A DNA stretch of 64,000 bases, taken from assembly GCA_018995085.1 (NCBI GenBank), contig GCA_018995085.1_3936.1; one strand, given 5' to 3'. A program made the translations under genes and the position numbers. Shown one piece after another: positions 17,881-38,437 of this stretch (the first letter of the stretch is position 1; every line of letters begins with the position of its first letter). Under the pieces are notes generated by a model that saw only the letters and a program-made list of their open reading frames with translations, was not told the origin of the DNA and searched no databases. The stretch comes from a phage.

Positions 17881-18017
17881 TTAGCAGATTACTTAGACGA
17901 CCTTAGCGGGTCTTCCTGTAGGGAGGTGGTCTGTATCTCATGTTTTCCAGAACATGTAAATAATCTGAGAAGGGGCTTTACAGTGTTGAGATAATACGGT
18001 AAGCTTCGAATTATAGT

Positions 18018-18100
18018 ATGGGACGATGTTAAGACTCTAAGGCATGAGCAACGGCTTCCAACACCGTTTCAAAGGGGTTCAACTCCTCCGTCCCATGCCA
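18018..18100 (+). tRNA. tRNA-like gene, probable Trp (anticodon CCA) with enlarged D region
   Basis: acceptor ATGGGAC/GTCCCAT perfect, loop TTCCAAC, 83 nt. Confidence 0.45.
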
Positions 18101-18113
18101 AAGTCTTATTAGG

Positions 18114-18203
18114 GGTAGGTAGCGGCTAATGGTAGCCAAACTGTCTTGAAAACAGTTGCCACTGTAGAGATACGGTGAGGGTTCGACTCCTTTACTTACC
18201 GCC
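18114..18203 (+). tRNA. tRNA-Ser (anticodon UGA), type II
   Basis: anticodon stem ACTGT/ACAGT, loop CTTGAAA, 20-nt variable arm. Confidence 0.7.
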
Positions 18204-18459
18204 TAATAAGATTTACTCCGTCCATGCTTGTTCGCATTGTCGGTTTATCCCTCGTGTATTGTCGTACACACTGATAAAACACCTAGTAGGTGTCACGGAG
18301 AAGAGATAATATCAAGCTCTCTAAAGGTTCTAGTCACCGGATTAAACAAGACTATGCAAAGACCTTTTTAGGTCTTTTTAGAGGGCTTCTAAGGTTATTA
18401 GTCGCTTGTTGTGGAACCTTGTTGCTTAGGTTCTTAGAAGTTCTCTAAAAAGATTTAAT

Positions 18460-18538
18460 GGGAGATTGACGGCAACTTGGTAGACCTATCTCGCTTAGAA
18501 CGAGATGCTTGAGGGTTCGAATCCCTTGTCTCCTACCA
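18460..18538 (+). tRNA. tRNA with UAG anticodon loop (Leu-type anticodon) but short variable arm
   Basis: anticodon stem TCTCG/CGAGA, loop CTTAGAA, D-loop AACTTGGTAG, 4-nt variable region. Confidence 0.5.
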
Positions 18539-18545
18539 AATTAAT

Positions 18546-18621
18546 GCAGGTGTAGCAAAATGGTTATGCGGCTGACTCTTAATCAGTAAGACGATGGGTT
18601 CAATTCCCTCCACCTGTACCA
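18546..18621 (+). tRNA. tRNA-Lys (anticodon CUU)
   Basis: loop CTCTTAA; T-arm region similar to the UUU copy. Confidence 0.55.
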
Positions 18622-18627
18622 AACAAT

Positions 18628-18703
18628 GGGGTCATAGTTTATATGGTTAAAATTCGAGTTTTGCAAACTTGGGAACTGAGTTCAATTCTCAGTGACTCCA
18701 CCA
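18628..18703 (+). tRNA. tRNA-Ala (anticodon UGC)
   Basis: loop TTTGCAA; G3:U70 wobble pair in acceptor stem; T-arm CTGAGTTCAATTCTCAG. Confidence 0.7.
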
Positions 18704-18709
18704 ATTAGT

Positions 18710-18784
18710 GCATCCATAGTTTAAACGGGAAAATTACAGTCTTCCAAACTGAGGTTGAGGGTTCGATTCCCTCTGGATGCTCCA
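18710..18784 (+). tRNA. tRNA-Gly (anticodon UCC)
   Basis: acceptor GCATCCA/TGGATGC perfect, loop CTTCCAA. Confidence 0.7.
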
Positions 18785-18791
18785 AATTAAT

Positions 18792-18867
18792 GCTCCTATC
18801 GTATAATTGGTTATTACGGTTGCCTTGTAAGCAACTTATCAGGGTTCGAGTCCTTGTGGGAGCACCA
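18792..18867 (+). tRNA. tRNA-Thr (anticodon UGU)
   Basis: anticodon stem GTTGC/GCAAC, loop CTTGTAA. Confidence 0.7.
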
Positions 18868-18963
18868 ATTCAGAGGTCAAGTGAAAGACCGCTTTGAGTC
18901 AACTGAAGACCGTAACAAATTCCACGGAGTTGAGTTAGCGGCACAACTCCAGACCTCTTTCAT

Positions 18964-19038
18964 ACTCGCTTAGTTTATATGGTAAAACATCACCCTTACA
19001 AGATGAAGAAAAAGGTTCAAGTCCTTTAGTGAGTACCA
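18964..19038 (+). tRNA. tRNA-Val (anticodon UAC)
   Basis: loop CTTACAA, T-arm AAAGGTTCAAGTCCTTT. Confidence 0.6.
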
Positions 19039-19039
19039 T

Positions 19040-19117
19040 GTTCCAGTATCCCAATTGGCAGAGGATGCAAGCTCAAACCTTGTATTAGTGACGGTTCGAA
19101 TCCGTCTTGGAACACCA
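19040..19117 (+). tRNA. tRNA with CAA anticodon loop (Leu-type anticodon) but short variable arm
   Basis: acceptor GTTCCAG/TTGGAAC, loop CTCAAAC, 6-nt variable region. Confidence 0.5.
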
Positions 19118-19122
19118 ATTTT

Positions 19123-19198
19123 GCAGGATTAGTTCAAATGGAAAGAGCAACAGTCTACGAAGCTGTTAATAGGGGTTCGAATCCCTTATCCTGCGCCA
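19123..19198 (+). tRNA. tRNA-Arg (anticodon ACG)
   Basis: acceptor GCAGGAT/ATCCTGC perfect, loop CTACGAA. Confidence 0.65.
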
Positions 19199-19215
19199 GA
19201 TAAAAAGGTGATACT

Positions 19216-19458
19216 ATGCAAACATTAACAGTAGTTGAACATGAAAACTGTGAGAGTATTGAGTTTGTCAGGGTCATTGGTGTTGAACACCACATTTTCT
19301 TAAAAGTTGGATACTTATGTGACCCCGCTAGAGTAGAAAGATTTATACGTGATTGTTTTGGTGGTAGACATCTGAAGAGTGTTATTTTTGAGACAGTTTT
19401 ACCAGAAGGTTTAGAAACGAATAATAACATTTACCTCCTTACGAGGATTAGACAATGA
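19216..19458 (+). CDS. hypothetical small protein embedded in tRNA array
   Basis: ORF track; SD-like AAAGGTGA upstream. Confidence 0.45.
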   Translation: MQTLTVVEHENCESIEFVRVIGVEHHIFLKVGYLCDPARVERFIRDCFGGRHLKSVIFETVLPEGLETNNNIYLLTRIRQ

Positions 19459-20012
19459 GATACTTAAAGTATGCTTCATGGATTTTCTTAGCTTTGTTAG
19501 AGCTATTTGCAGCAATCTTAGCAGTTATCTTAGCACCTTTCGTAGTTCCATTCTACAGTGAGAAGAAAGGACATCTACCTTTCGGGTTCAGATGGATGGA
19601 AACTTATGACAACCCAATTGATGGTGATGAAGGTCACGTTAAAAGATGGGCTAATATTAGATGGATTGGTAAACTAGGTGTCTACATGCAAAGAGTCGGA
19701 TGGCTCTGGAGAAACAAAGCTTATAACTTCTCTTACCATGTATTAGGGAGAGATGTAAAAGATGTTACTAAGTGGAAAGGTAATATCAACGTAAGTTCTG
19801 ACCCTGAAGATAATCAGACAGGTTATCTCCTAATGTGGAACAGTAATGCTTGGGGATTATTCGCTTTTATCCCATCAATTAAAATCTTTGGTAAACAATT
19901 TTACTGGAGAATTTATATTGGATGGAAACTAAAAAGTGTTGTCCCAGAAGAAAGAGCATTCTCAAGGGAAAGAGTTATGTTGGCATTCTTTATTCATCCA
20001 CTGAGAAAGTAA
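19455..20012 (+). CDS. putative membrane protein embedded in tRNA array
   Basis: N-terminal hydrophobic helix (WIFLALLELFAAILAVILAPFVVPF). Confidence 0.5.
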   Translation: MRYLKYASWIFLALLELFAAILAVILAPFVVPFYSEKKGHLPFGFRWMETYDNPIDGDEGHVKRWANIRWIGKLGVYMQRVGWLWRNKAYNFSYHVLGRDVKDVTKWKGNINVSSDPEDNQTGYLLMWNSNAWGLFAFIPSIKIFGKQFYWRIYIGWKLKSVVPEERAFSRERVMLAFFIHPLRK

Positions 20013-20030
20013 AGATTTAAAGGGGATTAG

Positions 20031-20106
20031 TTTACAAGGTTAAAACCTCGGTCTTTGAAATCGAAGAAGTTGGTTCAATTCCAACATCCCCCGCCAATGC
20101 TCCATT
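20031..20106 (+). tRNA. tRNA-Gln (anticodon UUG)
   Basis: loop CTTTGAA, T-arm GTTGGTTCAATTCCAAC, unpaired 1:72. Confidence 0.6.
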
Positions 20107-20108
20107 AC

Positions 20109-20187
20109 TCCAATTGGCAGAGAGGCCAGACTTAAAATCTGTGTTATGTATCGGTTCGAATCCGATATGGAGTACCAAATTTAGCGG
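20109..20187 (+). tRNA. tRNA with UAA anticodon loop (Leu-type anticodon) but short variable arm
   Basis: loop CTTAAAA, T-arm ATCGGTTCGAATCCGAT, 7-nt variable region. Confidence 0.5.
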
Positions 20188-20192
20188 TATAG

Positions 20193-20268
20193 CATAACTG
20201 GCAATGCAGCAGTCTCTGAAGCTGTCTTATTAAGGTTCAAATCCTTATGCCGCTGCCACTTCTAAGGA
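20193..20268 (+). tRNA. tRNA-Gln (anticodon CUG)
   Basis: loop CTCTGAA, D-stem GCAT/ATGC. Confidence 0.55.
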
Positions 20269-20289
20269 TTCTTACGAGAGTCCTTAAAT

Positions 20290-20365
20290 GTGGCCTTATC
20301 ATAAATGGTAATGACCCATGCTGTGAACATGGTCTATACGGGTTCAAATCCCGTAGGTCACCCCA
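20290..20365 (+). tRNA. tRNA-His (anticodon GUG)
   Basis: anticodon stem CCATG/CATGG, loop CTGTGAA, discriminator C. Confidence 0.65.
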
Positions 20366-20370
20366 ATTTA

Positions 20371-20445
20371 TAGTCCAAGTAGCTTATATGGTTAAAGCGC
20401 GTGTCTGAAAAACATGAGAAGAGGGTTCAAATCCCACTGGACTAC
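20371..20445 (+). tRNA. tRNA-Phe (anticodon GAA)
   Basis: acceptor TAGTCCA/TGGACTA perfect, loop CTGAAAA. Confidence 0.65.
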
Positions 20446-20463
20446 CAATTTCAAAGGTGCTTA

Positions 20464-21198
20464 ATGAAAGAGATGACAGAACAAGGTAAGGAGATTTTTA
20501 ATCTCTTAAAAACTGGTAAAGGGTTTTCTAACCCCCTTATTACTGGTGCAGCAGTTCTCGGTGGAACCGTAGCTGCCTCCACATCACTTGTAAGCTCTAT
20601 TAGTTCTGTATCAGACCCTACAGTAAAAGATAAGCTTGTTGCTGCTGGACTTACAACAGTTCTGCTTAACAGCTTTACCACGAGTCTGACAAGCACTACA
20701 TCAACTACCAAAACACTGACAGATTACGGTCAAAAGTCCATTGATGAGTTTTCATCACGTATGCAGGTAGCAAAAGGTTATTCTAATGTTATGGGTGCAG
20801 CAGGTGAACAAGTTGGCTGTACACCATTTAGTGGTATTATGGGTGTTGCTACAGAGTATGGTCAAAAAGCTATTGATACGATTAACAGTGCACTAGACGG
20901 TGTTAATGATGTATTAAGTGATTTACAAGACGCTATTGACAAAGGTCTTGATACTATTTCTGATTTAGCTAACCAAGCTGTTAGTAAGATTAATGAAGGT
21001 ATCTCGAAGATTACAGCTTATGCAGATGAAGTTGTGCAGATGATTGAAGAAGAAGCTGCCCTTATTGCAGAGTACCTTAAAACGAATATCAATGGGTTCT
21101 TAGCAGGTATCTTACCAGACTGGTTTGATGATGCTTGTAAAACTGGTGTAATTGACACTATTGCAACACCAGAAATGAAGAACGCATTACAGAAATAA
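20464..21198 (+). CDS. hypothetical Ser/Thr-rich protein
   Basis: ORF with internal ATG at 20464; the track start at 20401 lies inside tRNA-Phe. Confidence 0.55.
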   Translation: MKEMTEQGKEIFNLLKTGKGFSNPLITGAAVLGGTVAASTSLVSSISSVSDPTVKDKLVAAGLTTVLLNSFTTSLTSTTSTTKTLTDYGQKSIDEFSSRMQVAKGYSNVMGAAGEQVGCTPFSGIMGVATEYGQKAIDTINSALDGVNDVLSDLQDAIDKGLDTISDLANQAVSKINEGISKITAYADEVVQMIEEEAALIAEYLKTNINGFLAGILPDWFDDACKTGVIDTIATPEMKNALQK

Positions 21199-21199
21199 T

Positions 21200-21292
21200 G
21201 GAAGATTAACCCTAAAAGGTAAGGGAGCAGTTTGCTAAACTGCCAGTAGCTGAGAAATCGGTGTACCAGTTCAAGTCTGGTATCTTCCTCCA
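21200..21292 (+). tRNA. tRNA-Ser (anticodon GCU), type II
   Basis: acceptor GGAAGAT/ATCTTCC perfect, loop TTGCTAA, long variable arm. Confidence 0.7.
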
Positions 21293-21296
21293 ATTT

Positions 21297-21372
21297 GAAT
21301 CCGTGACAGAAATGGCTATGTGCCTGTCTGCAAAACAGGTTTATAAGGGTTCGAGTCCCTTCGGATTCTCCA
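21297..21372 (+). tRNA. tRNA-Cys (anticodon GCA)
   Basis: acceptor GAATCCG/CGGATTC perfect, anticodon stem CCTGT/ACAGG, loop CTGCAAA. Confidence 0.7.
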
Positions 21373-21409
21373 AGTTATTTTACTCTCTCTCAATTAAAAT
21401 AATAATAAT

Positions 21410-21469
21410 GCCCTGCTATCAGTATTCTTCCTTTCGCTACCGAAGAGTATTTTTAGACAGGGCTTTTTT
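21410..21469 (+). terminator. long hairpin terminator (GCCCTG..CAGGGC + TTTTTT)
   Basis: stem with nested inner stem followed by T6, at the end of the tRNA array. Confidence 0.55.
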
Positions 21470-21534
21470 ACAGAGTTATACTTTATAAGAAGCCTTATAC
21501 AGTATGTCTCTGACGTACATTGTGGTTTCTCCTT

Positions 21535-30545: not shown

Positions 30546-31898
30546 ATGTGGAATCCAATTGTTAATGTAGATATTACATTGAACACCGCAGGAACTACAA
30601 GAGAAGGTTTTGGGCTGCCACTATTTTTAGCTTCAACAGATAACTTTGAAGAAAGAGTCCGTGGTTACACTTCCTTAACTGAAGTTGCTGAAGATTTCGA
30701 TGAGAACTCTGCTGCATATAAAGCTGCTAAACAACTTTGGAGTCAGACTCCTAAAGTAACTCAGCTTTATATTGGTAGACGTGCTATGCAGTACACTGTA
30801 TCAATTCCTGATGAAGTTTCTGAAAGCACAGATTATTCTCTAACTGTAGCTGTTAGTGGTGGAGTTTCTCAGCCATTCCAGTACACTGCACAGTCAGAAG
30901 ATACTGCTGAGAAAGTACTACAGCAGTTTAAAACACAGATTGAAGCAGAGCCTTCTGTTAAAGACCTTGTTACAGTTAATGTAACTGGTTCTGGCGGTTC
31001 AGCAACAATGGTAATTACCAAAGCTGGTGATAATGACTTCGTGAAGGTGACTTCTACAGCACAAACAGTATCAATTGCAAGTACTACTGCTGACACAGCA
31101 TCGACTGCTCTGGCAGCTATTGAAGCTTATTCAACTGACTGGTATTTCATTGCAGCAGAAGACAGAACTCAACAGTTTGTCTTAGCAATGGCTTCTGAGA
31201 TTCAAGCTCGCAAGAAGATTTTCTTTACAGCTAACTCCGATGTAACAGCCCTACAAGGCACAGAATTAGCTAGTGCAAACGATGTTCCAGCACAGCTTGC
31301 TAAGAGTCAGTACACTCGTACCGTTTGCTTGTGGCATCACACAGCAGCAGAAGACTATCCAGAAATGGCATACATCGCTTATGGTGCTCCGTATGATGCA
31401 GGTTCAATTGCTTGGGGTAATGCACAGTTAACTGGTGTAGCTGCTTCTCTACAGCCATCTAATCAGAGACCTCTGACAAGTATTCAGAAGTCAGCTTTAG
31501 ATGCACGTCACTGTAACTTTATTGACCTTGATGGTGGTGTTCCAGTGGTTCGTAGAGGGATTACTTCTGGTGGGGAATGGATTGATATCATCCGTGGTGT
31601 TGACTGGTTAGAATCAGACCTGAAAACTTCTCTGAGAGACTTGCTAATTAACCAGAAGGGTGGTAAGATTACTTATGATGATACTGGTATTACCCGTATT
31701 CGTCAAGTCATTGAAACCTCTCTGCAAAGAGCAGTCAACAGAAACTTCCTGTCATCTTACACAGTTAATGTTCCTAAAGCCTCTCAAGTTGCTTTGGCAG
31801 ACAAGAAAGCTCGTATCCTGAAAGACGTTACCTTCTCAGGTATCTTAGCAGGGGCTATCTTGGATGTTGACTTGAAAGGTACAGTGGCTTACGAATAA
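30546..31898 (+). CDS. putative tail sheath protein
   Basis: 450 aa followed by 148-aa tube-sized gene, chaperones and tape measure (contractile-tail gene order). Confidence 0.5.
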   Translation: MWNPIVNVDITLNTAGTTREGFGLPLFLASTDNFEERVRGYTSLTEVAEDFDENSAAYKAAKQLWSQTPKVTQLYIGRRAMQYTVSIPDEVSESTDYSLTVAVSGGVSQPFQYTAQSEDTAEKVLQQFKTQIEAEPSVKDLVTVNVTGSGGSATMVITKAGDNDFVKVTSTAQTVSIASTTADTASTALAAIEAYSTDWYFIAAEDRTQQFVLAMASEIQARKKIFFTANSDVTALQGTELASANDVPAQLAKSQYTRTVCLWHHTAAEDYPEMAYIAYGAPYDAGSIAWGNAQLTGVAASLQPSNQRPLTSIQKSALDARHCNFIDLDGGVPVVRRGITSGGEWIDIIRGVDWLESDLKTSLRDLLINQKGGKITYDDTGITRIRQVIETSLQRAVNRNFLSSYTVNVPKASQVALADKKARILKDVTFSGILAGAILDVDLKGTVAYE

Positions 31899-31913
31899 TA
31901 GAGGTAAATTGGA

Positions 31914-32360
31914 ATGGCTATGTATCAGCAATATTCCCCTAAAGACGTTGTGTGTAGCTGGAATGGTATTGCCATTGAAGGCTTTGCCCCAGACTCATTC
32001 TTACGTCTACAGAGAACATCACCACTTGTGACACCAGTTGTAGGTGCAGGTGGTCAAGTTGCTCTGACAAGAAATGCAGACAAGACAGGTACTATTGAGA
32101 TTGAGCTAATGCAGACTTCTCTCTCTAACCAGATGCTTTCTGCAATTCAAGCTAAACAAGACAATATGGAACTTGAAGAAGATATCTCTTCTAACTTCGT
32201 AATCTACGACCCATCAGGCTCTGTTCTGGCAACTGGTATTAATGCTTGGTTGCAGGAATTACCGCAGATTGAACTTGGTCGTGACCAGAACTCTAAAACT
32301 TGGATTTTTGGTTGTGAGAAGCTAGACTACACTTCTACAATTCCAGCGTCAAGTGTTTAA
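31914..32360 (+). CDS. putative tail tube protein
   Basis: size and position. Confidence 0.5.
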   Translation: MAMYQQYSPKDVVCSWNGIAIEGFAPDSFLRLQRTSPLVTPVVGAGGQVALTRNADKTGTIEIELMQTSLSNQMLSAIQAKQDNMELEEDISSNFVIYDPSGSVLATGINAWLQELPQIELGRDQNSKTWIFGCEKLDYTSTIPASSV

Positions 32361-32372
32361 TAAATCCTATAA

Positions 32373-32406
32373 GGGGGAGACTTTAAAAGGTCTTCCCCTT
32401 TTTTGT
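32373..32406 (+). terminator. Rho-independent terminator (GGGGAGACC stem, 9 bp, + TTTTTTTG)
   Basis: strong hairpin plus T-run immediately after the putative tube gene. Confidence 0.7.
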
Positions 32407-32433
32407 TTCTTTTAAAAGTATTAAGGAATCACA

Positions 32434-32832
32434 ATGAAAACAGAATCTAGAGTAATTAATGGTAAGAAAGTAAATATCGTTCTGCTTGGGGCAAGAGATG
32501 GTATTAAGATGTCTATGAAGTTGGGTAAAATTGTTGTTCCAACATTTGCACAGATGCTGTCAAGCCTGACTGATAAAGATAAGAAAGAAGCTCCAATGGT
32601 TCCATTTAAAGAACTTGTTGAAGCTTGTTTTGACAGAATTGAAGAAATCAACCTTGAAGAAATGGCTACCCTGTTATTTCAAGGGGCAACTGTCGATGAC
32701 TTCCCACTTAATATTGATACGTACTTCCAAGCAAACTACGGTGAGTTTATTGATTACTTAGCATTTGCGCTGGAGGCAAACTTCGGAAGTTTTTTCGAAG
32801 CAAGCATTTTCAAAAGCCTAACTTCTCAGTAA
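32434..32832 (+). CDS. tail assembly chaperone
   Basis: position before tape measure; slippery TTTTTTC near 3' end. Confidence 0.6.
   Translation: MKTESRVINGKKVNIVLLGARDGIKMSMKLGKIVVPTFAQMLSSLTDKDKKEAPMVPFKELVEACFDRIEEINLEEMATLLFQGATVDDFPLNIDTYFQANYGEFIDYLAFALEANFGSFFEASIFKSLTSQ
32790..32796 (+). promoter_or_regulatory. -1 programmed frameshift slippery site T_TTT_TTC
   Basis: canonical XXXYYYZ heptamer in chaperone frame; the -1 frame is open from here into the 32835..33074 ORF. Confidence 0.55.
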
Positions 32833-32834
32833 AC

Positions 32835-33073
32835 ATGGGTAACACTCTACAGACACCACTAACTGATGCTGCTGTAGAGGCAACCTATGAAGAAGCAGAC
32901 GAGATGAAATTTGTGCTTGCTATTTATGGTATGGAAGGGTGTAAAGAAACACTTGACCAACTCTTTGCTATGACATTCTCTGATTTATTATCATTGAGAC
33001 AATTTCTTGAGATTCAGAGGTCGTATAAAGAGGAAATTGCTTACAACGAACTTAGAAGAGCAGGAAAAATGTA

Positions 33074-33074
<1 letters not shown>
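32835..33074 (+). CDS. tail assembly chaperone frameshift extension
   Basis: ORF in -1 frame relative to 32434..32832, directly upstream of tape measure. Confidence 0.5.

Positions 33075-38437
<5,363 letters not shown>

Follow-up and report, generated by a model that had tools for sequence, protein, structure and literature searches.

A conserved T_TTT_TTC heptamer and a predicted −1 ribosomal frameshift in the tail assembly chaperone genes of a Felixounavirus phage

The dnaX gene of E. coli carries the heptamer A_AAA_AAG followed by a strong 3' hairpin, and about 50% of ribosomes shift frame at this signal. In phage λ, a small share of ribosomes shifts to −1 towards the end of the first open reading frame (ORF) of the G/GT tail genes, giving two products in a 30:1 ratio; the N-terminal part has the tape measure protein as its partner, and the −1 domain the tube, according to the work of Levin et al. 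(1993) and Xu, Hendrix & Duda (2004) as summarised in PMC5009743. The E/E+E′ pair of phage P2 employs a TTTTTTG heptamer, with no 3' RNA structure in the account of Christie et al. (2002) given in PMC3091744, and its products were shown experimentally. Closer to the locus described here, a frameshift was stated in the 2015 genome announcements of Citrobacter phages Moogle and Michonne (KT001916) (PMC4319497, PMC4591319), and joined coding sequences for the same event are annotated in Moogle (KM236239) and in Salmonella phage Mushroom (NC_041923). The frameshift is already predicted for this phage group, and is a known, textbook feature. A literature search covering Felix O1-like and rV5-like phages returned it only as annotation-level statements and found no protein, ribosome-profiling or reporter data.

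The DNA analysed here is a stretch of 64,000 nucleotides (contig GCA_018995085.1_3936.1 of GenBank assembly GCA_018995085.1), hereafter the window. It belongs to Felixounavirus, the genus of Mushroom, with which it shares 97.8% identity over the region, and is about 99% identical to its best megablast matches, E. coli O157 typing phage 1 and Escherichia phage KEP1. A megablast search with positions 31900-33400 as query matched 295 phage records, nearly all of them from Felixounavirus or other Ounavirinae. The features of the locus are collected in Table 1. Comparison with the systems above indicates that it is very probably a programmed −1 ribosomal frameshift site of the λ G/GT and P2 E/E+E′ type, from which chaperones of 132 and 213 amino acids would be produced.

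Table 1. Coordinates of the features of the tail chaperone locus and its surroundings in the window.
Feature	Coordinates	Strand	Description
Tail sheath gene	30546-31898	+	phrog_205; just 5' of the tube gene
Tail tube gene	31914-32360	+	phrog_280, Pfam KPP10_Orf10
Terminator-like hairpin and T-run	32371-32410	+	from terminator scan; 13-bp stem with 6 G-C pairs; between tube and chaperone genes
Shine-Dalgarno AAGGA for ORF1	32423-32427	+	read from sequence; 6 nt 5' of the ATG
ORF1, zero-frame tail assembly chaperone (short gpG-like product)	32434-32832	+	132 aa; stop TAA 32830-32832
Zero/−1 double-open overlap	32754-32832	+	79 nt, 26 codons
Shine-Dalgarno-like GGAGG, candidate 5' stimulator	32772-32776	+	13-nt spacer to the heptamer
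Slippery heptamer T_TTT_TTC	32790-32796	+	X_XXY_YYZ in the zero frame of ORF1, codons Phe120-Phe121
−1-frame extension, gpT-like domain	32796-33074	+	92 aa; stop TAA 33072-33074; contains annotated ORF2
ORF2 (inside the −1 frame)	ATG 32835 to 33074	+	79 aa; phrog_4963 'tail assembly chaperone', E 2.8e-55
Tape measure protein gene	33074-35281	+	phrog_4036 (1458 bits), Pfam TMP_3

The gene order is that of G/GT-type loci, with an overlapping ORF pair between the tube and tape measure genes. Sheath, tube and tape measure genes, together with baseplate genes 3' of the tape measure gene, flank the pair, and the assignment of the region to a tail module in the preliminary description is sound. Its identification of both ORFs as tail chaperones is likewise borne out by the protein families. 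ORF1 matches Pfam PF21822 (Phage_TAC_15) over residues 9-124 with 71.5 bits against a gathering cutoff of 22 (E 1.2e-19), as well as phrog_1613 (E 7.9e-49), and ORF2 belongs to a family of the same function. An AF2 model of ORF1 (pLDDT 89) finds myophage tail assembly chaperones as its best BFVD matches; the top structural match is the 212-aa fusion of Moogle (A0A0A0RQ75). The length of this fusion agrees with the prediction but does not locate the slip, since any −1 shift in the overlap gives a product of equal length. Neither sequence nor fold searches found a PDB relative of ORF1 or of the fusion (best fold E 1.1), and an NCBIfam search gave no match. The tube protein is presumed, by analogy with λ gpV, to be the partner of the −1-encoded domain. 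The chaperones presumably act on the tape measure protein, whose gene starts at an ATG that overlaps the stop of the −1 frame (TAATG).

Two elements upstream of ORF1 complete this setting. The Shine-Dalgarno sequence AAGGA, for which a ribosome binding site is annotated at the equivalent place in the Mushroom and Moogle records, is the one initiation site common to the short and long products. The strong intrinsic-terminator-like hairpin, whose equivalent is labelled 'terminator' in the KhF1, KhF2 and XTG1 records, probably reduces transcription into the chaperone and tape measure genes relative to sheath and tube; it is context and lies outside the recoding signal.

The preliminary description had placed T_TTT_TTC in the zero frame of the first chaperone ORF and had the −1 frame open from there into the second, and all of these coordinates and frames are confirmed. 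The ORF1 codons concerned are AGT TTT TTC (Ser119-Phe120-Phe121, 32788-32796). The −1 frame is open from 32754 to its TAA at 33072-33074, a run of 107 codons that contains ORF2, and the +1 frame is shut at 32821. Within the overlap, T_TTT_TTC is the sole canonical heptamer, positioned in the zero frame as slip sites of the G/GT type are. The predicted long product joins residues 1-121 of ORF1 to the 92 aa of the −1 frame, 213 aa in total.

Within a single genome such an observation is only mildly improbable. The 92 putative genes of the window (18,574 codons) contain 69 in-frame X_XXY_YYZ heptamers (0.37% per codon), which corresponds to a chance expectation of about 0.1 within the 26-codon overlap; only three of the 69, among them the one at 32790, precede a −1 frame of at least 40 codons. 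A single genome being weak evidence, the weight of the argument rests on conservation across clusters. Elsewhere in the window, T_TTT_TTA at 21464 was rejected as a slip site, as it sits in a spurious ORF. That ORF (21261-21488, 75 aa, GTG start) overlaps the genes for tRNA-Ser (21200-21292) and tRNA-Cys (21297-21372) and is almost certainly not a gene. A further zero-frame heptamer, A_AAG_GGG at 36063-36069, precedes the stop of the gene at 35281-36078 by four codons, and the next gene (36078-36419) is in the −1 frame; the heptamer is most likely incidental, because it doubles as the ribosome binding site of that next gene.

Among named phages, T_TTT_TTC occurs in the zero frame and within the overlap in Felixounavirus, Mooglevirus, Suspvirus, Kolesnikvirus, Yersinia phage P778, Hafnia phage SarahDanielle, Pectobacterium phage Wc4-1 and the Vequintavirinae CR8 and W70; ORF1 identity among the compared phage records outside Felixounavirus is 26-82%. 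A scan of IMG/VR added 55 loci, 54 of them with TTTTTTC and one with TTTTTTT. All 55 have T as the last base of the preceding codon and, past the heptamer, a −1 frame of 78-105 codons. These loci were retrieved by the peptide pattern [SC]FF[EGD], so that the amino acids are ascertained there and the codons are not. Taken together, the phage records and IMG/VR loci form 19 clusters (<60% identity) with GC contents of 0.39-0.65, and every one of the 19 keeps NNT_TTT_TTY with a −1 extension of 78-125 codons, the conservation characteristic of G/GT. With the peptide [S/C]FF and the codon usage of each locus taken as given, NNT TTT has a probability of 0.017-0.33 in the individual clusters; the joint value of about 1e-16 somewhat overstates the significance, as it assumes independent clusters. 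The codon choice is unchanged even at 62-65% GC, in loci that seldom use TTT or NNT serine codons (p 0.017-0.07 per locus). As judged from this codon usage, the heptamer and its −1 architecture are conserved far beyond what conservation of the protein would demand.

The limits of this pattern were surveyed by an unbiased HMMER sampling, clustered at 50% to 146 representatives, in which the site reads FF in 64%, FL in 11% (a pair compatible with T_TTT_TTR) and other residues in the rest, with a median tail of 21 residues 3' of the site. The two non-FF members inspected (L071:34-486 and L072:431-835) carry T5 runs in a non-canonical register (AGC CTT TTT ACA and TCA GTT TTT ACA, respectively) and could reach the homologous C-terminal domain only through a −1 shift; L072 has its −1 frame open from just two codons 5' of the T5 run. 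These sites suggest that an A-site tRNA may slip alone on U_UUU.

At the nucleotide level, conservation among eight Ounavirinae genera or lineages is highest at the heptamer and the next 30 nt, and against the Erwinia phages (43% protein identity) blastn aligns only 32779-32819. The conserved 30 nt were considered as a novel stimulator and rejected, since only some Ounavirinae share them, with divergence setting in directly after TTTTTTCGAA in Pectobacterium phage Wc4-1 and the L045 group. Their conservation is attributed to coding in two frames.

The −1 extension bears directly on whether ORF2 is a gene in its own right. Across clusters, the −1 peptides are homologous in two parts, one that begins directly 3' of the heptamer and contains R-x-x-[RKH]-[FY]-[WQ]-x-P, the other a C-terminal domain. 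In many clusters no ATG, GTG or TTG lies ahead of the conserved domain, and the first start codon of the extension is found at codon 57 in Kolesnikvirus, at 73 of 78 in L051, at 64 of 85 in L058 and at 65 of 125 in CR8. The −1 domain of these relatives depends on the ORF1 start, and, as far as their start codons indicate, independent initiation of it cannot take place in many of them. As in G/GT, the second ORF lacks a credible start of its own, and conserved sequence extends 5' of any start.

These features make it very unlikely that ORF2 is an independent 79-aa protein made from ATG 32835, by de novo initiation or by termination-reinitiation, next to a heptamer that is incidental. Such a protein would agree with most database records, in which two separate genes are annotated; this is the case for most Felixounavirus entries, including those nearest to the window, and some of these genes are misnamed. 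Furthermore, in Felixounavirus the ATG lies 2 nt past the TAA of ORF1, a geometry that can permit translational coupling, and a degree of reinitiation may occur there. However, no Shine-Dalgarno sequence is present in the 20 nt before this ATG in the window, and the codon itself is not conserved, being ATA in the L024 locus, located elsewhere in Mooglevirus and missing in Kolesnikvirus, while in many clusters the first possible start falls deep within or past the conserved domain. The −1 peptide upstream of the ATG (RSKHFQKPNF) is conserved, and it aligns with an in-frame linker in a single-ORF relative described below. Independent translation would also leave the frozen synonymous codons NNT TTT TTY in 19 clusters unexplained.

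The relative in question is a metagenomic locus (L070:1201-2246, from Logan contig SRR21680730) in which a short Phage_TAC_15 gene of 134 aa is followed directly by one unshifted ORF of 213 aa. The short gene has no T-run at the usual site (AGT TTC CTC). The long ORF is collinear with the predicted fusion of the window across the junction (residues 5-208 against 7-205, 27% identity, E 1e-17). In this lineage, the short and long chaperones appear to come from two duplicated genes and not from frameshifting, and its single ORF indicates that the fused architecture is a real protein, encoded there without recoding. Together with the conservation in 19 clusters and the joined coding sequences of Mushroom and Moogle, this fused ORF supports the match to the conserved G/GT frameshift that had been proposed from the window alone.

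Most database annotations miss the predicted frameshift or misname its product. An exact-sequence look-up of the 213-aa fusion found it absent from the sequence collection, as is to be expected when gene callers take no account of frameshifts. At least 1000 contigs carry the exact 79-aa ORF2 sequence, and ORF2 goes by names such as 'hypothetical protein', 'Uncharacterized protein' (Felix O1, Q6KGH9) and 'head closure protein'. A different situation is recorded for Escherichia phage CL1 (OK040806.1, 84151-84792; L008:957-963), where a T7 run replaces T6, ORF1 and ORF2 form one frame and the product is annotated as a 213-aa 'tape measure chaperone'. The T7 is probably a homopolymer sequencing error; if real, this phage would make the long form only.

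The preliminary description had also proposed a search for a downstream stimulatory structure, and none is present in the window. Folding was applied to the 50, 80 and 120 nt 3' of the heptamer and to 101 nt around it, and likewise in 21 relatives. In the window, the 50 nt (ΔG −3.2 kcal/mol, z +0.94) and 80 nt (−10.2 kcal/mol, z +0.80) segments fold no better than shuffles, with z spanning +0.7 to +0.9, and all Ounavirinae representatives gave the same picture. No structure starting 5-9 nt 3' of the heptamer, the arrangement of a dnaX-type hairpin, was found in the window or in any Ounavirinae representative, and an Rfam search of 32300-33200 gave no meaningful match. One hairpin that begins about 38 nt past the heptamer (z −1.8) is too distant and too weak to act as a stimulator. 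Another, formed by CUUCGGAA and UUCGAAG and spanning the heptamer, is treated as a coincidence because it is not conserved beyond Felixounavirus. Lack of a 3' structure is normal for phage tail frameshifts, as in P2, and it implies that the efficiency of the shift may be low. Distant IMG/VR clades present stable hairpins 5-8 nt 3' of T_TTT_TTC, with z values of −6.4 (L057), −6.6 (L069), −2.8 (L067), −3.9 (L061) and −3.7 (L066), and three of these five are built on a common GCGGTATTGG arm.

On the 5' side, Shine-Dalgarno-like elements stimulate −1 shifts at a spacing of 9-14 nt (PMC5009743), and the GGAGG of the window may do so. This motif depends on a glutamate codon that reads GAG in 14 of 18 clusters, whereas local codon usage predicts about 7.3. 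GGAGG is absent or weak in Kolesnikvirus, in the Hafnia and Yersinia phages and in Vequintavirinae. It is a candidate stimulator, because five clusters lack it and its nucleotides double as codons for a conserved Leu-Glu-Ala. The heptamer itself, U_UU.U_UU.C, is one of the H_HH.U_UU.Y motifs, the class found most efficient in E. coli, and it is under-represented in the genes of that species (PMC4066793). The window encodes 25 tRNAs in a cluster at 15796-21372, including tRNA-Phe(GAA) at 20372-20447. At or next to the slip site, phage-encoded tRNAs serve every codon: AGU (Ser(GCT)), UUU and UUC (Phe(GAA)), the next zero-frame codon GAA (Glu(TTC)) and the next −1 codon CGA (Arg(ACG)). CGA is a rare codon in E. 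coli.

Slippage could in principle take place during transcription, with RNA polymerase adding one U on the T6 so that a fraction of the mRNAs would carry ORF1 and ORF2 in frame. The site is indeed a homopolymer run, a weak hairpin followed by a T-run (32770-32786, then AAGTTTTTTC) was flagged by the terminator scan, and the T7 of the CL1 record illustrates how a one-base insertion yields an in-frame fusion. Productive transcriptional slippage in bacteria involves runs of about nine A or T (PMC5009743), however, and the run here is only T6. No T run of seven or more exists in the window, which contains 16 other T6 runs and 36 runs of A6 or longer with no sign of avoidance. Moreover, it is the reading register that is conserved and not mere run length, and register matters to tRNA re-pairing, not to the polymerase; the hairpins at 5-8 nt in several distant clades also have the geometry of ribosomal stimulators. 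An origin in transcription is thus highly improbable. The idea that a conserved Ser-Phe-Phe peptide gave rise to the heptamer by chance, with the downstream ORF unlinked to ORF1, can point to the conservation of Phe-Phe at the protein level and to the probability of about 0.1 for an in-frame heptamer in the overlap of the window alone, but it is effectively refuted by a codon choice that is invariant even at 62-65% GC (joint ~1e-16), by a −1 architecture kept in every cluster and by the single-ORF homologue.

For programmed −1 ribosomal frameshifting, the following course of events can be proposed. All ribosomes would initiate at ATG 32434, and most would continue to the TAA at 32830 to produce the 132-aa chaperone. 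A minority would slip with tRNA-Phe on UUU in the P site and on UUC in the A site of U_UUU_UUC; both tRNAs would move back one base and re-pair with UUU UUU. Translation would then resume at CGA in the −1 frame and proceed to the TAA at 33072, giving a 213-aa protein that shares its first 121 residues with the short form and carries a C-terminal domain of 92 aa. The efficiency of the slip is probably a few percent. By analogy with λ, the common N-terminal part may coat the tape measure protein, and the tube protein would be brought in by the −1-encoded domain; both forms would be required, in a fixed, unequal ratio, and neither would be part of the virion.

At the level of the family, a broader picture may be drawn, which we advance tentatively and regard as rather unlikely in its full form. 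Phage_TAC_15 systems would combine a frozen T_TTT_TTC, maintained from 39 to 65% GC, with stimulators swapped between clades, GGAGG on the 5' side in Ounavirinae and 3' hairpins in several uncultured clades; in at least one lineage frameshifting would have been replaced by duplication into separate short and fused ORFs, and the Felix O1 group would set the efficiency of the shift through its own tRNAs.

The main practical value of these results lies in annotation: ORF2 is best regarded as the C-terminal domain of a predicted 213-aa frameshift product and not as a separate gene. The G/GT logic would extend to Felix O1-like and rV5-like contractile-tailed phages, and a clean, very deeply conserved heptamer could serve in phage engineering. 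When these therapeutic phages are recoded or codon-optimised, AGT TTT TTC must be left intact.

Like λ G/GT, the locus has an overlapping ORF pair flanked by the major tail and tape measure genes, and its predicted short and long products would have the N-terminus in common. However, λ is a siphovirus that slips on G_GGA_AAG, whereas the window phage is contractile-tailed and carries T_TTT_TTC; no sequence similarity of its chaperone ORFs to λ gpG or gpT was detected, the Pfam family here being Phage_TAC_15, and it is only in λ that a ratio (30:1) and binding partners have been established. The likeness to dnaX would lie in the Shine-Dalgarno-like element 5' of the heptamer, whose 13-nt spacing falls within the 9-14 nt range; unlike dnaX, this locus has no 3' hairpin, and the element is a candidate that is not universal in the family. 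P2 E/E+E′ resembles the locus in belonging to a myovirus, in its T6-based heptamer and −1 shift without downstream RNA structure, and in the position of the gene pair between the tube and tape measure genes. It differs in its heptamer, TTTTTTG as against TTTTTTC, and in its smaller proteins (91 and 142 aa) from another family; with G in place of C as its last base, the P2 heptamer has a Leu tRNA in the A site, where the locus would have a Phe tRNA. With Mushroom, Moogle and Michonne, finally, the window shares the same gene pair, the heptamer AGT TTT TTC and the −1 relation, and nothing of substance differs from these annotation-level predictions. The present comparison refines this known system modestly: the heptamer proves invariant in a large family of diverse base composition, stimulators are specific to clades, and one lineage appears to have duplicated the gene in place of frameshifting.
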